The notes below the pieces were generated by a model. It saw nothing but the letters and a program-made list of their open reading frames with translations. It made no database searches and was not told where the DNA came from. The position numbers and the translations under genes are program-made. A stretch of DNA of 64,000 nucleotides from positions 32,297 to 96,296 of the forward strand of contig CAYHIR010000001.1 of the NCBI GenBank assembly GCA_964356815.1, in the 5' to 3' direction. Positions 7,671 through 49,612 of the stretch are shown here, piece after piece (position 1 is the stretch's first letter; every line of letters starts with the position of its first letter). Origin of the DNA: an uncultured Candidatus Saccharibacteria bacterium (lineage in GTDB: Bacteria; Patescibacteriota; Minisyncoccia; Phycocordibacterales; DATGWK01).

Positions 7671-9947
7671 ATGAAACTACTTGTTGTTGAGTCGCCAGCC
7701 AAAGCGAAAACAATTTCCAAATATTTATCGGGCATGCCATCGGGAGAAAAATTTGAGGTTGTTGCGTCTGTTGGACATGTGCGCGATTTGCCAAAATCAA
7801 ATAAAAAAGCCATCGACATTGAGGCTGGTTTTGTGCCGCATTATGAAATTTCGCCGGGTAAAGAAAAAGTGATCGACGAAATTCGCCGACTCTCCAAAAA
7901 AGCCGACGAAGTTTTCCTCGCCACCGACCCCGACCGCGAAGGTGAGGCGATTGCATGGCACATTGCTCAGGCTGTGGGCTTAAAAAATCCGGAGCGCGTG
8001 GTCTTTCATGAAATTACAAAAGAAGCGGTGCAAGAAGCGCTAGAGCATCCGCGAAAAATAGACACGAATTTGCGTGAAGCTCAAGAAGCCCGCCGCGTAC
8101 TCGATCGACTCGTGGGCTACGACCTTTCCGGTCTAATTTGGAAAAAAGTTCGCTACGGCCTTTCTGCCGGCCGAGTTCAGTCGCCCGCTCTACGCATCAT
8201 AATGGAGCGCGAACGTGAAATCCGCGCATTTAAATCGCACGCTTTTTGGATAATTACGGCAGACACGGAGACAACGGGTGCGGCGAAAAAAGAACCGATG
8301 ACGCTCACCTGTTCTGAAGAACCGACGGAACTCAAAGAGGTGGAGCGGATCGTGGCCGCGGGCAATGCCGCTGGCAAAGCTGGCTCTAGCGACGCGAAAA
8401 ATGGCTGGCGCGTGATAGATGTAAAAGAAACAGCGGTCAAACGATCGCCGAAGGCCCCGTTCATTACTTCTACCCTTCAGCAATCAGCCAGTTCACGCCT
8501 TGGTTTTGCGCCGTCGAAAACTATGGGTGTTGCTCAGAGGCTATATGAGGCCGGACACATTACTTATATGCGTACGGATAGTACGAACCTCGCAGGGATG
8601 GCGCAAAAACAAATCGCCGCTGTGGTAAGCAAAAAATTTGGCGAAAAATATTTGAGTCCGCGCGTCTTCACCGCAAAAAGCAAAAATGCTCAAGAAGCTC
8701 ACGAAGCAATTCGTCCGACAAATTTCTCTGCCGAATCTGCTGGCCTCACCGACGAACAGAAAAAGCTCTACCGTCTCATTTGGCAGCGCACTGTCGCGTC
8801 ACAAATGACCGACGCTGAAACACTTCGCACAAAAATTACGGCGAATATCAGCGACGAAAATTCCGTCGCCACCGCCACCGAAAAAATTCCCGACTTTTCT
8901 ATCACCGGCTCACGCGTCATTTTTGCTGGCTGGATGGAAGCCGACGACATGGCAAACAAAGAAGACACGATTGTGCCAGCGGTAAAAATTGGCGAACCAC
9001 TCAAGCTCGTGGAAATAAAAACCGAAGAAAAACAAACCGAACCACCAGCGCGCTATTCTGAAGCCGGCCTCATTAAAGAATTGGAAAAACGCGGCATCGG
9101 CCGCCCGTCTACTTACGCTTCGATTATTAAGACAATCGAGGAGCGAGGCTACGTGGAAAAAATAAATAAAGCACTAATTCCAACAGACACCGGCGATGTG
9201 GTTTCAACATTTCTTGAAGAAAACTTTACCGATTACATCAGCGACACTTTCACCGCCGAAATGGAGGACAAACTCGACGACATCGCAAACGGCAAACGCG
9301 AATATTTGGAAACTCTCGAAAAATTCTACAAGCCTTTTAAAAAAGATGTGAAGTCGAAAGAAAAAATAGAAAAAATCACAAACCTTGGCAAAGCTGATCC
9401 GAGTCTCAAATGCCCAGTCTGTGGCGCAGGCATGATTATCAAACTCGGCAAGTCTGGCAAGTTTTTGAGTTGTGAAAAATTTCCAGATTGCGTTGGCGCG
9501 CGCACTATTACTGGCGAAGAATTAGAGGGCCCGCGCGAAACTGGCGAACTCTGCCCCGAATGTGCAACTGGCAAACTCATCGAACGCGATGGCAAATACG
9601 GCCGCTTCATTGCCTGCAACAATTATCCAAAATGTAAATTTGTAAAAAAAGATCCCGAGCTCGAGAAAAAAGCCTCAACCGGCGTCGCTTGTCCTGTCTG
9701 CAAAAAAGGTTTCATGATGGAAAAACGTGGTCGCTTCGGCCTCTTCTACAGCTGTAGCAATTATCCCGATTGTAAAAATGCCATCAAAGCCAAACCGACT
9801 GGCAATATCTGCGAGTACCCACGCGAAAAAGGCCCTTGCGGCGCCCTCATGATGGAAGGCACAAAAACTATTCCGGAGAGATGCAGTGACAAAATGTGCC
9901 CGAATCATAATCCGCATAAGTTGGAAGATTCTCCGGCAAAAAAGTAG
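7671..9947 (+). CDS. topA: DNA topoisomerase I with C-terminal zinc-ribbon repeats
   Basis: 758 aa; TOPRIM N-terminus (LVVESPAKAKTI), catalytic Tyr region (HITYMRTDS), multiple CxxC zinc fingers. smf-topA synteny. Confidence 0.9.
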   Translation: MKLLVVESPAKAKTISKYLSGMPSGEKFEVVASVGHVRDLPKSNKKAIDIEAGFVPHYEISPGKEKVIDEIRRLSKKADEVFLATDPDREGEAIAWHIAQAVGLKNPERVVFHEITKEAVQEALEHPRKIDTNLREAQEARRVLDRLVGYDLSGLIWKKVRYGLSAGRVQSPALRIIMEREREIRAFKSHAFWIITADTETTGAAKKEPMTLTCSEEPTELKEVERIVAAGNAAGKAGSSDAKNGWRVIDVKETAVKRSPKAPFITSTLQQSASSRLGFAPSKTMGVAQRLYEAGHITYMRTDSTNLAGMAQKQIAAVVSKKFGEKYLSPRVFTAKSKNAQEAHEAIRPTNFSAESAGLTDEQKKLYRLIWQRTVASQMTDAETLRTKITANISDENSVATATEKIPDFSITGSRVIFAGWMEADDMANKEDTIVPAVKIGEPLKLVEIKTEEKQTEPPARYSEAGLIKELEKRGIGRPSTYASIIKTIEERGYVEKINKALIPTDTGDVVSTFLEENFTDYISDTFTAEMEDKLDDIANGKREYLETLEKFYKPFKKDVKSKEKIEKITNLGKADPSLKCPVCGAGMIIKLGKSGKFLSCEKFPDCVGARTITGEELEGPRETGELCPECATGKLIERDGKYGRFIACNNYPKCKFVKKDPELEKKASTGVACPVCKKGFMMEKRGRFGLFYSCSNYPDCKNAIKAKPTGNICEYPREKGPCGALMMEGTKTIPERCSDKMCPNHNPHKLEDSPAKK

Positions 9948-24161: not shown

Positions 24162-24235
24162 GGCGTAGTGGCGAAGTTGGTCAACGCGGCAGTCTGCAAA
24201 ACTGCTATGCGCCGGTTCGATTCCGGCCTACGCCT
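24162..24235 (+). tRNA. tRNA-Cys (anticodon GCA)
   Basis: Acceptor GGCGTAG/CTACGCC; anticodon stem GCAGT/ACTGC with loop CTGCAAA; T-arm CCGGTTCGATTCCGG. Confidence 0.8.
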
Positions 24236-24249
24236 TAGAAAGACGAAAT

Positions 24250-24333
24250 GCCCGGGTGATGAAATTGGTAAACATGCAACACTTAAAATGTTGTGAGCGA
24301 AAGCTCTTGCCGGTTCGATTCCGGCCCTGGGCA
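24250..24333 (+). tRNA. tRNA-Leu (anticodon TAA)
   Basis: Acceptor GCCCGGG/CCTGGGC; anticodon stem CAACA/TGTTG with loop CTTAAAA; long variable arm; T-arm GCCGGTTCGATTCCGGC. Confidence 0.8.
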
Positions 24334-24387
24334 CAAATTAAAAGAGCGAAGTTTGACATATATATCTAGTATATATAAGATATATGC

Positions 24388-24663
24388 ATGACTACGCAAG
24401 TAATATTCAACATCGATAAAAAGCTCAAGGACAAAGCGATGAAAAAAGCTCAGAGTGAAGGCATGCCATTTGGAGTTGTTCTTAAGCTTGCCACCAAAGC
24501 TTTCGTTGATGGCACCCTTGGAATCAGACTCGTCTCTAGCGAATCCTTCAATCCAGCGACCAGAAAAGCCGTTGACGAAATGATCAAGGATGTTAAAACG
24601 GGCAAAAACCTATCTCCTCGCCTTCGTACGGCAAAAGAAGCAGTGGCTTATCTAAGGGGCTAA
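24388..24663 (+). CDS. Type II antitoxin, RelB/DinJ-like ribbon-helix-helix family
   Basis: 91 aa; N-terminal RHH pattern (VIFNIDKKLKDKAMKKAQSEGM...VVLKLATKAFVD); AT-rich near-palindromic sequence upstream; 50 nt before the toxin gene. Confidence 0.6.
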   Translation: MTTQVIFNIDKKLKDKAMKKAQSEGMPFGVVLKLATKAFVDGTLGIRLVSSESFNPATRKAVDEMIKDVKTGKNLSPRLRTAKEAVAYLRG

Positions 24664-24713
24664 GTTGAAGATAACTTAAATATTTCTTGATCTAAGAATG
24701 GCAATGTTTTGCC

Positions 24714-25142
24714 ATGGATAACACAGAAAAAGACTTTGACAGATGGGGTTTAGAGAAAAAATATACTCATACTTATTACAGGAAAATAATTTTTTACGAA
24801 CGAGAAATTTGGTGGGCAAAAATCGGTGTGAACGTAGGAGTAGAAATTGACGGAAAACATGAGCTTTTTCTTCGGCCTGTAGTTTTATTAAAAAAATTTA
24901 ATAAACATATGGTTTTGATCGTGCCAACCACAGGCAAAGAAATACAGGATGAATATCACATTCCTGTTTCAGGAGAAGACGGTAAAATCTACCATGTTTG
25001 TATTTCCCAAATTCGAACCATTAGTACGAAGAGGTTATTTAGAAGAGTGGGTAAAACAGATAAAGAAAGTTTTACATTGCTTATTAGCGCAACCTTAGAG
25101 ATGATTAGAAAAAATACCGTGAACAACGAAACCCCGCATTAA
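24714..25142 (+). CDS. MazF/PemK-family endoribonuclease toxin
   Basis: 142 aa; REIWWAKIGVNVGVEIDGKHELFLRPVVLLKK...LIVPTTGK...ISQIRTISTKRL matches the PemK/MazF SH3-like barrel signature. Hairpin terminator at about 25127..25160. Confidence 0.7.
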   Translation: MDNTEKDFDRWGLEKKYTHTYYRKIIFYEREIWWAKIGVNVGVEIDGKHELFLRPVVLLKKFNKHMVLIVPTTGKEIQDEYHIPVSGEDGKIYHVCISQIRTISTKRLFRRVGKTDKESFTLLISATLEMIRKNTVNNETPH

Positions 25143-25283
25143 GCGGGGTTTCTCGGATGGTCATCGAACCTAGAATATTATTAGGCCGAAACCGATAATG
25201 TACTAAATACTAGCAAACCCTCGGCAAAAAACAAGTTCAAAAAGCTCGAATTTTATGCTCTGATGTGATAATCTGAAATTTCT

Positions 25284-25345
25284 CCCACCCATAGCTGTTT
25301 TGGTAGAAATCAGCAAGTTCCCACCCATAGCTGTTTTGGTAGAAT
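25284..25345 (+). repeat. Two tandem degenerate copies of the tRNA-Lys 5' half (CCCACCCATAGCTGTTTTGGTAGAA), 36–41 bp period, immediately upstream of the tRNA-Lys gene
   Basis: 25284..25308 and 25320..25345 match tRNA-Lys positions 1-24 except that CAGTTGG is replaced by GTTTTGG. Confidence 0.7.
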
Positions 25346-25361
25346 TACAGAAAATTAATAT

Positions 25362-25434
25362 CCACCCATAGCTCAGTTGGTAGAGCAGGTGCCTCTTAAG
25401 CACTTGGTCGCAGGTTCGAGTCCTGCTGGGTGGA
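25362..25434 (+). tRNA. tRNA-Lys (anticodon CTT)
   Basis: Acceptor CCACCCA/TGGGTGG; D-arm AGCTCAGTTGGTAGAGC; anticodon stem GGTGC/GCACT with loop CTCTTAA; T-arm GCAGGTTCGAGTCCTGC. Confidence 0.8.
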
Positions 25435-25589
25435 CACGAGGTAATTTGTGCTCATAATCTCAAAAAGATAAACGAGTGGCCGCCCAGAGAACATGCCTTG
25501 AGGCATGTGCGTCAGGACGAGAAAGGCTTTTCGTTATCGAGCGAGCCTTTGGCGAAGCGAGATCGAAAAGCACCTGCGGCGGTAGCCGA

Positions 25590-25607
25590 GAGTCCTGCTG
25601 GGTGGAC
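25590..25607 (+). repeat. 18-nt direct repeat of the tRNA-Lys 3' end (GAGTCCTGCTGGGTGGAC), att-site-like
   Basis: Exact copy of 25418..25435, located 155 bp downstream of the tRNA. Confidence 0.65.
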
Positions 25608-25643
25608 CGCAGAAAAAATGTTAGGATAGCGAAACACCTCAAT

Positions 25644-25725
25644 GCCGAGGTGGCGAAATTGGTAGACGCACTTGCCTTAGGAGCAAGCGGGGTAACCCAT
25701 GGAGGTTCGAGTCCTCTCCTCGGCA
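25644..25725 (+). tRNA. tRNA-Leu (anticodon TAG)
   Basis: Acceptor GCCGAGG/CCTCGGC; anticodon stem CTTGC/GCAAG with loop CTTAGGA; long variable arm; T-arm GGAGGTTCGAGTCCTCT. Confidence 0.8.
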
Positions 25726-25762
25726 CATTTAGAAACATTTAAAATAGACTTTAATAAACTTT

Positions 25763-25999
25763 TTATCTCTTCTTGGTTGTACGTGCCATTCGTTCCAAAT
25801 CTCTCTGAAGGTTCTGCAACTCTCCGTTGTTGTGAGCCATTTCCGCGCGCGCCCGACTTATTTCGCCATCCAACCTTCTCATCTCGTTTTCCCTTTCTGC
25901 CAATTCCCGCTTTTCTTTTTCAATTTCCAACTTTAATCTCCTGTGTTCAGACTCCTTTGTTTCAACAATTCTTGCCTCTTTTTCAACTTCTTTTTTCAA
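25763..25999 (-). CDS. Small charged coiled-coil hypothetical protein
   Basis: 78 aa, Glu/Arg/Lys-rich heptad-like sequence. May be spurious. Confidence 0.3.
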   Translation of the reverse strand: MKKEVEKEARIVETKESEHRRLKLEIEKEKRELAERENEMRRLDGEISRARAEMAHNNGELQNLQRDLERMARTTKKR

Positions 26000-26137
26000 A
26001 TCGCCGATTCGTGATGAAATTTCAATTGTCTTGTGTTTTAACGAATTAATTAATGACTAACAGTGAGTTCATTATAACGCACTCTTCGGCGACAAACCGT
26101 CCAAGCTATTGAACCATTACGTTGCGCTTGACAATTC

Positions 26138-26166
26138 CTTATAGACTGATATAATCCCGAGCGGAA
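26138..26166 (+). promoter_or_regulatory. Strong sigma70-like promoter (TTGACA-16nt-TATAAT) with ~85 nt 5' UTR containing a perfect 8-bp hairpin (GGATTTCA/TGAAATCC)
   Basis: Direct reading: ttgacaattccttatagactgatataat. AAGGAG RBS 8 nt before the ATG at 26256. Confidence 0.55.
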
Positions 26167-26255
26167 CTAGATCTTGGATTTCAATGTGAAATCCGGTGGT
26201 TCTGTGGAGTTCGTTGACACTGTGGTAAAACTACAAAAACAAAAGGAGTCATCTG

Positions 26256-49466: not shown

Positions 49467-49496
49467 TACCGATTTTTGTGTTAATCTAGCGTTCTC

Positions 49497-49519
49497 GGGC
49501 GGTTAGCTGTTTTGGTAGG
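49497..49519 (+). repeat. Degenerate copy of the tRNA-Val 5' half (GGGCGGTTAGCTGTTTTGGTAGG) 17 nt upstream of the tRNA-Val gene
   Basis: Matches tRNA-Val positions 1-23 except that CAGTTGG is replaced by GTTTTGG. This is the same substitution seen upstream of tRNA-Lys. Confidence 0.65.
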
Positions 49520-49536
49520 TAACGCTAAAAAATCAC

Positions 49537-49612
49537 GGGCGGTTAGCTCAGTTGGTAGAGCGCAACATTGACGTTGTTGATGCCAGAGGTTCGAGTCCTC
49601 TACCGCCCACCA
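49537..49612 (+). tRNA. tRNA-Val (anticodon GAC), CCA encoded
   Basis: Acceptor GGGCGGT/ACCGCCC; anticodon stem CAACA/TGTTG with loop TTGACGT; T-arm AGAGGTTCGAGTCCTCT; ACCA 3' end. Confidence 0.85.

Follow-up and report, generated by a model that had tools for sequence, protein, structure and literature searches.

Copies of tRNA ends beside a tRNA-Lys gene belong to small conserved modules at many Parcubacteria tRNA genes

A cluster of tRNA genes lies on a 64,000-nucleotide (nt) stretch of DNA (the window) from an uncultured Candidatus Saccharibacteria bacterium (assembly GCA_964356815.1, contig CAYHIR010000001.1, positions 32,297 to 96,296), and in this cluster a tRNA-Lys(ctt) gene is flanked by partial copies of itself, with a toxin-like and an antitoxin-like gene just upstream. 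The question raised by this locus is what those copies are. tRNA genes are classic landing pads for mobile DNA, and copies of part of a tRNA are commonly taken for the scars of integrases, as they were in the original prediction for this locus, which was made from the sequence alone. The copied ends of tRNA-Lys are real, but they are not the scars of a large integrated element: they are members of two small conserved kinds of module that occur at many tRNA genes of Parcubacteria, namely a structured trailer that follows the gene and short decoys in front of it. What is ordinary here is that a tRNA operon contains a small toxin-antitoxin-like locus; what is interesting is the two families of tRNA-flanking modules, for both of which the mechanisms set out below are what we infer. 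In Parcubacteria of the candidate phyla radiation, which are little studied and largely uncultured, many partial tRNA copies are small structured modules at both tRNA ends, and, be they mobile elements or host RNAs, they will be a source of error for island finders and for tRNA annotation in such genomes.

The trailer element behind tRNA-Lys

The exact 18-nt copy of the tRNA-Lys 3' end reported by the original prediction is present: GAGTCCTGCTGGGTGGAC extends from the T-loop to the 3' end of tRNA-Lys (25418-25435) and recurs in the same orientation at 25590-25607, with 154 nt between the two, and is found nowhere else in the window at three or fewer mismatches. Such a pair is far beyond chance, the expected number of exact 18-mer pairs within 2.2 kb being approximately 3e-5 by our own arithmetic, (2200^2/2)/4^18. 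The repeat is the 3' arm of a 172-nt structured element, the type-B tRNA-trailer element, which occupies 25436-25607 of the plus strand and was recognized by a covariance model, by RNAfold and by covariation across its family. From its 5' end, the element consists of a degenerate hairpin region (H1, 25436-25475), an antisense acceptor arm (GTGGCCGCCCAG, 25476-25487), a hairpin (H2, 25491-25508), an antisense T-stem (CAGGAC, 25513-25518), a stem (P2, 25526-25533 with 25564-25571), a second hairpin (H4, CGGC-GGTA-GCCG, 25577-25588) and the sense arm, which is the 18-nt repeat. The 154 nt between the repeats contain no open reading frame (ORF).

A type-B element is defined as one that starts no more than about 60 nt after a tRNA gene of the same strand, contains an antisense arm, stem P2, a GTACTG or CACCTG junction and hairpin H4 with a YGTAR loop, and ends with a copy of the 3' end of that tRNA. 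The window element has all of these features and is of the CACCTG subtype with a GGTA loop, shared with L051 and L048 (L numbers denote sequences compared with the window). The covariance model matches it at 25478-25607 with 48.8 bits (E=2e-9), the sole match in the window. Its minimum free energy structure (-67.9 kcal/mol, z=-4.1) is the family architecture with all helices, and the minus strand folds more weakly (-59.3 kcal/mol, z -3.2). In L294, a sister lineage that was aligned pairwise with the window, the trailer is approximately 94% identical and H2 differs by two compensatory double changes. The sense arm of L294 also reads GGAC at 2184-2187 where the window reads GTCC at 25593-25596, a 4-nt micro-inversion of the kind made by template switching within quasi-palindromes, which reduces the repeat of L294 to 16/18.

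The comparison set consisted of the window and 80 relatives, whose IF2 proteins are 45-60% identical to that of the window. Within it, 38 tRNA genes of seven kinds (Tyr, Cys, Leu-taa, Lys, Leu-tag, Trp and Gly) have an exact copy of at least 12 nt of their own 3' end, mostly 100-190 nt downstream; by our arithmetic, approximately 0.02 would be expected by chance for a 14-mer with up to one mismatch. The copies reach 12-55 nt, start in the T-loop and in some cases run beyond the end of the tRNA; a few of the 38 are tandem arrays or special cases (one insertion bears an ORF, and another crosses an assembly gap). The layout that they share is an optional H1, an antisense arm (acceptor 3' strand plus T-stem, often split by H2), a core and the sense copy, and at least three types of core are built into this one architecture: type A (AGCCGGAG-hairpin-CGAGGCGGGGTCGCG-hairpin-YGTGACC), type B (GAAA-P2-GTACTG/CACCTG-H4 with YGTAR loop-CGA) and type C (GAACAGATTGTCGG..CTGGTGCCCAG). 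Related Parcubacteria have type-B elements behind at least 35 tRNA genes, of six species; the whole structure is 110-190 nt long, and each element ends in a copy of the 3' end of its own tRNA and carries an internal antisense arm. Types A and C follow Tyr, Cys, Leu and Lys tRNAs, at times in tandem with type B (examples are in L009-L088, such as L081 8972-9082, L015 10406-10564 and L039 4875-5007, and in L102 2890-3319). The ORF-bearing case (L055 7686-8095) is a 333-nt insertion after tRNA-Gly(gcc) that encodes an 87-residue GIY-YIG protein (Pfam E=3e-14) and is bounded by 20-nt direct repeats of the 3' end of that tRNA, with the same geometry as the non-coding cassettes.

The type-B structure is supported by covariation. 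RNAalifold identified compensatory changes in 11/14 pairs, and in an alignment of 33 elements 94.5% of cells are paired compared to 64% after shuffling, with 127 compensatory cells compared to 33; the covariation score of 0.81 exceeds that of shuffles (0.22, with 0/500 reaching 0.81) and of slid controls (0.06-0.18). A search of 882 kb of sequence with the covariance model gave 47 matches, of which 37 start between 6 nt inside and 63 nt past the 3' end of a tRNA on the same strand. Tandem arrays combine types (B+A, C+B) or repeat one (type A in L102), and a core often has its nearest relative at some other tRNA: in L040, the tRNA-Lys and tRNA-Trp trailers share 95.7% identity across 46 core nt, while the antisense and sense arms of each fit its own tRNA. 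The distribution is patchy among relatives, a trailer being present at only about 10-25% of orthologous tRNAs. No Rfam 15 family other than tRNA matched the trailer or the decoys (window at E<=1, 11 relatives at gathering scores and L039 at E<=10), core types A and C are not in Rfam either, a literature search returned no description of trailer or leader modules, and both kinds of module are apparently undescribed.

The 3' boundary of tRNA-Lys has been a genuine site of recombination: contig L003 is identical to the window over 1,734 nt (with one mismatch) up to 25435 and then diverges completely. L003 is not an empty site, and L294 carries the trailer. In place of the trailer, L003 has a 25-bp perfect hairpin (AGCACAAACACAAACATTTATGCAA / TTGCATAAATGTTTGTGTTTGTGCT, within 1735-1831), soon after which the contig ends; this haplotype also has a G-to-A change in the T-loop of tRNA-Lys at 25420.

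Origin of the trailer family

The best explanation overall, to which we assign roughly an even chance of being correct, is that the operon infB-rbfA/tRNA-Cys-tRNA-Leu(taa)-[variable slot]-tRNA-Lys(ctt)-tRNA-Leu(tag) has been decorated by three small independent additions: a cassette-like trailer, the leader decoys, and toxin and antitoxin genes recently brought together. The trailers would be a family of modular, non-autonomous cassettes that insert at the T-loop/3' region of tRNA genes and either supply or duplicate the tRNA 3' end, so that the tRNA stays intact. The trailer would then be transcribed together with the tRNA as a stable fold in which the spare 3'-end copy is sequestered in P1, a long predicted stem between the sense copy and the internal antisense arm that carries H2 and encloses P2, the GTACTG/CACCTG junction and H4. 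The duplication geometry, the structure and the distribution of the trailers are demonstrated; their mobility is what we infer, because no enzyme was found and no clean pair of filled and empty sites was recovered.

Several observations weigh against this explanation. No integrase, transposase or HUH protein was detected in the part of the window that was screened: a crude regular-expression search of all window ORFs of at least 120 codons returned two matches, neither of which was taken for a recombinase, and a non-exhaustive Pfam search of 10 mid-size ORFs returned housekeeping families or nothing, so that the integrase for which the original prediction proposed a search did not appear. A search for empty trailer sites found no clean filled-versus-empty pair. 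Among viral contigs no phage or plasmid parent was found, the type-B pattern giving only chance matches in coding DNA and the type-A core giving one true match (L102), on a contig with cellular genes. The window and L294 inherited the trailer vertically; it has compensatory changes in H2, and the toxin gene nearby is far less conserved. A selfish cassette fits this pattern no better than a host-beneficial RNA does. Across the family, G-U pairs outnumber A-C mismatches 16 to 6, a modest excess that does not separate RNA structure from single-stranded DNA structure. Finally, a simple crossover in the T-loop cannot account for an internal antisense arm that matches each new tRNA.

The main rival, which we consider possible but less probable than the cassette, is that the trailer is a host-beneficial structured RNA of the operon spacer: a mimic of the tRNA acceptor and T-stem that serves as a processing (RNase P/RNase Z) or punctuation signal, a stabilizer, or a decoy or sponge for proteins that bind tRNA 3' ends, with arms that track the tRNA since the same proteins must recognize both. 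The strong covariation and GNRA-like loops, an orientation that is always that of the tRNA, the better folding of the plus strand, and the compensatory substitutions in H2 within an element about 94% identical to that of L294, next to a toxin whose protein is 65% identical, are all as a host RNA would have them. There are precedents, among them the leuZ 3' external transcribed spacer (3'ETS) of E. coli, a functional tRNA spacer sponge. Plant mitochondrial t-elements, which are tRNA-like processing signals, are another (PMC1920247). Like these two, the trailer is a structured non-coding segment beside tRNA genes that is presumably transcribed with them and mimics the acceptor stem and T-stem; unlike them, it copies sequence of the neighboring tRNA exactly, has a long helix and core in place of the T-loop, and is patchy and modular in its distribution. 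The features that a host RNA leaves unexplained are this patchiness, the three unrelated core types at the same position, the tandem arrays, the near-identical cores at different tRNAs of one genome, the protein-coding insertion with identical repeat geometry, and the replacement of the T-loop by an extended helix, which leaves no canonical tRNA elbow. If the trailers and decoys are host RNAs, they point to a layer of tRNA transcription or maturation not known before, in organisms whose RNA-processing toolkits are reduced.

The original prediction had read the 18-nt repeat as attL/attR-type sites of a tyrosine-integrase element, and its extension, in which an island has been almost entirely deleted to leave a CIME-like remnant, the toxin and antitoxin genes are its addiction cargo and the decoys are further att scars, is unlikely, to the point that we regard it as the least credible account of the locus. 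What stands is the geometry and the strain breakpoint at 25435. The direct repeat, which begins in the T-loop, extends to the 3' end and is oriented like the intact tRNA upstream of it, is such as remains after DNA has inserted into a tRNA gene and restored it; Williams (2002) is said to have found this part of the tRNA to be the commonest sublocation for integrases. The segment between the repeats, however, is a complete covarying element and not a decayed island. Integrase-less att-flanked elements (CIMEs) are a recognized category (PMC5704250, PMC6323972), and element integration is known to leave partial tRNA genes behind (PMC9897764). Islands and CIMEs resemble the trailer in their repeat, in the intact tRNA, in tandem accumulation and in the existence of remnants with no integrase; the trailer differs from them in being only 110-190 nt long, in its covarying hairpins and internal antisense arm, in the recurrence of the same cores with matched arms at many tRNAs, and in having no integrase-bearing parent that was found, there being no integrase in the 154 nt between its repeats or among the ORFs screened. 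The scar is unlikely because it predicts neither convergence on one covarying structure nor internal antisense arms specific to each tRNA: independent deletions would not arrive at the same structure after at least 35 tRNA genes in such divergent genomes, and covarying hairpins are not expected of att arms that bind protein. In addition, the toxin and antitoxin genes are upstream of tRNA-Lys and outside the repeat pair, the toxin gene is older in its slot than the antitoxin gene, and the decoys copy the 5' end and are 10-15 nt apart, which leaves no room for an element.

A bolder version of the cassette explanation, which we hold only tentatively, is that the trailers, and perhaps the leader decoys too, are an unrecognized class of non-coding mobile cassettes that are specialized on tRNA genes and have their arms rebuilt for each target. 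It is compatible with the near-identical cores that have tRNA-specific arms in one genome, with three core types built on one architecture, with the tandem arrays, and with the lack of a match in Rfam or the literature. The arms might be rebuilt through a folded single-strand intermediate similar to those of CTX phage and integrons, or by an RNA- or template-directed mechanism supplied in trans. The trailer resembles integron attC sites and the attP(+) hairpin of CTX phage (a dif mimic) in being an imperfect inverted repeat whose stem reproduces the duplex of the recombination or target site and whose center is variable or structured, and from its sequence anatomy the order sense-antisense-loop-sense is what a single-strand exchange between a hairpin and its target would leave; it differs from them in lacking IntI/Xer signatures (R'/R'' boxes), in having a tRNA gene as its target and in carrying no cargo. 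If the modules are mobile, they would be a new minimal way to colonize tRNA genes harmlessly, in which the matching of arm and target is worth knowing, and if the arms are rebuilt for each target, the elements would be programmable in the manner of guide-bearing elements.

Leader decoys upstream of tRNA-Lys

The original prediction described two tandem 25-nt degenerate copies of the first part of tRNA-Lys. Two copies are present, and their starts are 36 nt apart and then 41 nt from the tRNA as described, but they are 26 nt long and identical to each other (TCCCACCCATAGCTGTTTTGGTAGAA), being degenerate only in comparison to the tRNA, of which they match 20 of the first 24 nt. Decoy 1 (25283-25308, plus strand) consists of two flanking nt, nt 1-12 of tRNA-Lys and GTTTTGGTAGAA; decoy 2 (25319-25344, plus strand) contains a promoter-like sequence, TTCCCA-16-TGgTAGAAT. 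L294 has no decoys and has 19 nt in their stead. The module was defined as a copy of tRNA nt 1-12 followed by GTTTTGGTAG, located 35-80 nt upstream of the tRNA and on its strand. The same motif is upstream of tRNA-Lys in L051 and L081, and a third decoy of the window (GGGCGGTTAGCTGTTTTGGTAGG, 49497-49519, plus strand) is 40 nt upstream of tRNA-Val(gac) (49537-49612). Partial tRNA fragments formed by element integration (PMC9897764) are like the decoys in being non-canonical partial copies that adjoin an intact gene, and unlike them in that the decoys are a conserved module with an invariant non-tRNA motif, located in a probable leader and often tandemly amplified.

A metagenome scan with the pattern CCCWTRRCTGTTTTGGTAG returned at least about 90 matches. 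Among the matches listed, 60 of about 90 are 35-80 nt (two of them about 147 nt) upstream of a tRNA on the same strand, which is Lys-ctt in 36 cases, Lys-ttt in 15, Val-tac in four, Ala-tgc in three and a tRNA with an odd anticodon call in two, and most of these tRNA-linked matches are the first 12 nt of that tRNA plus a few flanking nt. Distances from decoy to tRNA, again among the matches listed, cluster at 37-40 and 73-75 nt, and in arrays of two or three units the period is equal to the distance to the tRNA. The decoys may arise and multiply by partial tandem duplication. In the spacers between them, which are AT-rich and variable, no conserved RNA structure was discerned by eye.

An extended -10-like sequence (TGTGATAAT, 25264-25272, plus strand) lies within a 61-nt block (25222-25282) upstream of decoy 1 and may be the promoter of tRNA-Lys and tRNA-Leu(tag), with a predicted start near 25279. 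The non-coding sequence 25143-25282 is far better conserved with L294 than the toxin gene is, and the 61-nt block differs by one base. The layout at tRNA-Val is the same, with an extended -10-like sequence (TGTTAATCT, 49479-49487, plus strand) before the decoy; in this locus (49477-49612) a terminator-like hairpin precedes the extended -10. At both window sites the extended -10 ends 9-12 nt upstream of the first decoy, and in about a dozen of the 49 metagenome loci scored there is one 9-18 nt upstream. The decoys are probably transcribed as part of the pre-tRNA leader, because they are just downstream of the extended -10 of the operon. Predicted folds allow a decoy to compete for the acceptor 3' strand; given the sequence identity this is to be expected, and it is no evidence of function.

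The decoys might instead be tandem promoters, in which, through a partial duplication of the tRNA 5' end, the D-loop sequence TTGGTAGAG has become an extended -10 (TGGTAGAAT) that provides additional start sites for tRNA-Lys, an alternative that we judge improbable. A promoter scan does find the TTCCCA-16-TAGAAT of decoy 2 with its TG motif, local tRNA promoters resemble TGGTATAnT, and the short class of units (35-41 nt) would give a leader of 5-9 nt. Promoter-like sites are not enriched, however (5 found compared to 3.9 expected in shuffles), a separate conserved extended -10 already exists upstream of decoy 1, and the match of the first 12 nt to the tRNA is left unexplained. Because the hexamer that follows TGG in the family is mostly TAGGTA, TAGGTC or TAGGCC and has no T at -7, a promoter role for the decoys is doubtful, being plausible for decoy 2 only, and this is a further point against the overall explanation. 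Three other ideas were rejected: a chimera with antisense tRNA-Cys (12/13 nt), judged coincidental; a link to MazF or to the repeats of type III toxin-antitoxin systems, ruled out by decoys with no such genes nearby (in L051, L081 and metagenome loci); and a boxA-like reading of GCUGUUUU, to which the resemblance is weak. Elsewhere, 5'-half pseudo-copies of tRNA-Cys are located about 95-99 nt upstream of the gene in L081 (~8000-8096) and L048 (~7860-7959) and have in common a conserved stretch that is not tRNA sequence (GTGGCATGAGCGNAGNGAAC), a hint of a second kind of leader module at another tRNA.

Toxin and antitoxin genes in the tRNA operon

The slot between tRNA-Leu(taa) and tRNA-Lys contains two plus-strand ORFs. 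The downstream one (24714-25142) encodes a 142-residue protein of the Paceibacterota PemK/MazF family (Pfam PF02452, PemK_toxin, E=7e-10, 39.5 bits against a cut-off of 23.1), which provides the toxin fold of a type II module. A GC-rich hairpin with no U-tract (AACCCCGC/GCGGGGTT, 25130-25150, plus strand) spans its stop codon, was not among the calls of the terminator scan and has been conserved in L294. The upstream ORF (24388-24663) encodes a 91-residue antitoxin-like protein, probably of the ribbon-helix-helix, DinJ/RelB type, which has no Pfam hit above threshold and no NCBIfam hit. It has 181 homologues, from Parcubacteria or unclassified bacteria where an organism is named, some of which are labeled RelBE/YafQ-DinJ antitoxin by JGI; the RelB profile matches 3/33 homologues at a sub-threshold E of about 0.02. 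The AlphaFold2 model (pLDDT 73) has an extended N-terminus and two helices, then two C-terminal helices, a predicted secondary structure that fits the ribbon-helix-helix fold; its top Foldseek match is DinJ in the DinJ-YafQ complex (4ml0), which at E=0.31 is not significant, with local ribbon-helix-helix alignments at 1.7 A root-mean-square deviation over 42 residues. A profile of the antitoxin against PDB sequences matched designed repeat proteins alone. Upstream of this ORF are a promoter-like sequence (TTGACA-17-TAAGAT, 24353-24381, plus strand, 10/12 matches in the promoter scan) and, overlapping it, an AT-rich palindrome (24357-24390, inverted repeats I2 and I9) that may be an autoregulatory operator. 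With the -10 (TAAGAT) ending 6 nt ahead of the ATG (24381-24390), the mRNA would be leaderless.

The RelB/DinJ-MazF pair of the original prediction is thus borne out as to a PemK/MazF toxin with an antitoxin-like ORF upstream, but the two genes are not found together in the relatives examined. L294 has a toxin orthologue, 65% identical, in the same slot directly after tRNA-Leu(taa) with no antitoxin gene, and two toxin homologues on long contigs (P0143 and P0133) likewise have none beside them. A 324-bp indel (24337-24660, plus strand) separates the window from L294; it starts 2 nt after tRNA-Leu(taa), shares its stop codon TAA with an ancestral TAAGTT, and contains exactly the promoter, the palindrome and the antitoxin ORF. 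The homologues of the antitoxin that are 63-73% identical are followed 4-12 nt downstream by 84-residue ParE/YafQ-like genes, so that the pairing is shuffled, as had been predicted: this antitoxin family normally partners YafQ/ParE-type toxins. Because L294 has the toxin in the slot with no antitoxin and the indel covers the antitoxin module only, the two genes appear to have come together recently and not to have arrived as the cargo of an island, and the earlier idea of an addiction cargo for a repeat-bounded element does not hold. Most simply, a PemK/MazF-fold gene with no adjacent antitoxin would be an old resident of the slot, upstream of which a DinJ/RelB-type antitoxin gene with its own promoter and operator would have entered as an insertion. 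The direction of this indel counts against the explanation in that it rests on only two toxin-homologue and three antitoxin-homologue contexts.

It is conceivable, though rather improbable in our estimation, that the two genes are a genuine co-evolved type II module from which L294 lost the antitoxin. They are adjacent on the same strand with a gap of 51 nt, the antitoxin comes first, an operator-like palindrome overlaps the promoter, and the toxin has a PemK fold. In these respects (a PemK/MazF toxin domain, a small upstream protein with a predicted strand-helix-helix N-terminus and a helical C-terminus, and a palindromic operator-like promoter) the locus is similar to DinJ-YafQ/RelBE and MazEF systems. 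It differs from them in the partners of the antitoxin relatives, which are YafQ/ParE-like and not MazF, in the toxin relatives (52-65% identical) that have no adjacent antitoxin in three contexts, and in the precise limits of the indel that separates it from its sister lineage; these same differences argue against a co-evolved module. The locus is a concrete case of an antitoxin gene beside a toxin of a different family.

The window is core chromosome of a Parcubacteria/Paceibacterota genome from Hainich groundwater. ARAGORN and Rfam concur on the order and boundaries of the four plus-strand tRNA genes as originally predicted: tRNA-Cys(gca) (24162-24235, 67.5 bits), the first gene of the cluster downstream of infB-rbfA; tRNA-Leu(taa) (24250-24334), conserved in relatives; tRNA-Lys(ctt) (25362-25434, the end being 25434/5, 72.2 bits); and tRNA-Leu(tag) (25644-25726), the last. 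Among the 80 relatives, tRNA-Cys follows rbfA in most, and the gene order infB-rbfA-tRNA-Cys-tRNA-Leu(taa)-tRNA-Lys(ctt)-tRNA-Leu(tag) is widely conserved with occasional inversions, the gap between tRNA-Leu(taa) and tRNA-Lys varying from 17 bp to 3.9 kb. The slot is prone to rearrangement but is not the hotspot of integrative elements that had been proposed, because the larger gaps in relatives carry housekeeping genes (alr and murI for alanine and glutamate racemases, a Mur ligase, FemAB and membrane proteins) and not mobile elements. Alignment with relatives, suggested as a check for variable presence, bore this expectation out for the antitoxin module, which is an indel in comparison to L294; the trailer is present in L294 as well. 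Copies of the tRNA-Leu(taa) 3' end flanking the toxin and antitoxin genes were looked for and not found, and a 13-nt inverted match (I7) of the tRNA-Leu(taa) end after tRNA-Lys is at chance level by arithmetic. The G+C content is 0.34-0.43 over 24300-25400 compared to about 0.5 on either side. The repeat arrangement is not an assembly artefact: parts of the region recur at 99.3-100% identity on eight independent contigs that come from several samples.

Several minor features of the operon were also noted. The spacer between tRNA-Cys and tRNA-Leu(taa) differs by an indel of about 17-18 nt, being 14 nt long in the window (24236-24249) and 31 nt in L294 (1193-1223); small indels alter the spacers of this operon even between close lineages. 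The tRNA-Lys(ctt) gene has a C1-G72 pair in the window and in many related lineages and G1-C72 in others, and CCA is not encoded. In L069 (7824-9093), the tRNA cluster and rbfA/infB recur in inverted orientation a few hundred bp away, either as a large palindromic duplication or as an assembly fold-back. The 58-kb contig L001 stops exactly at 25724, and the sequence after tRNA-Leu(tag) (25727-26255) is AT-rich, with a minus-strand ORF for a 78-residue coiled-coil-like protein (25763-25999) and a perfect promoter sequence, TTGACA-16-TATAAT with a TG motif, at 26128-26155.

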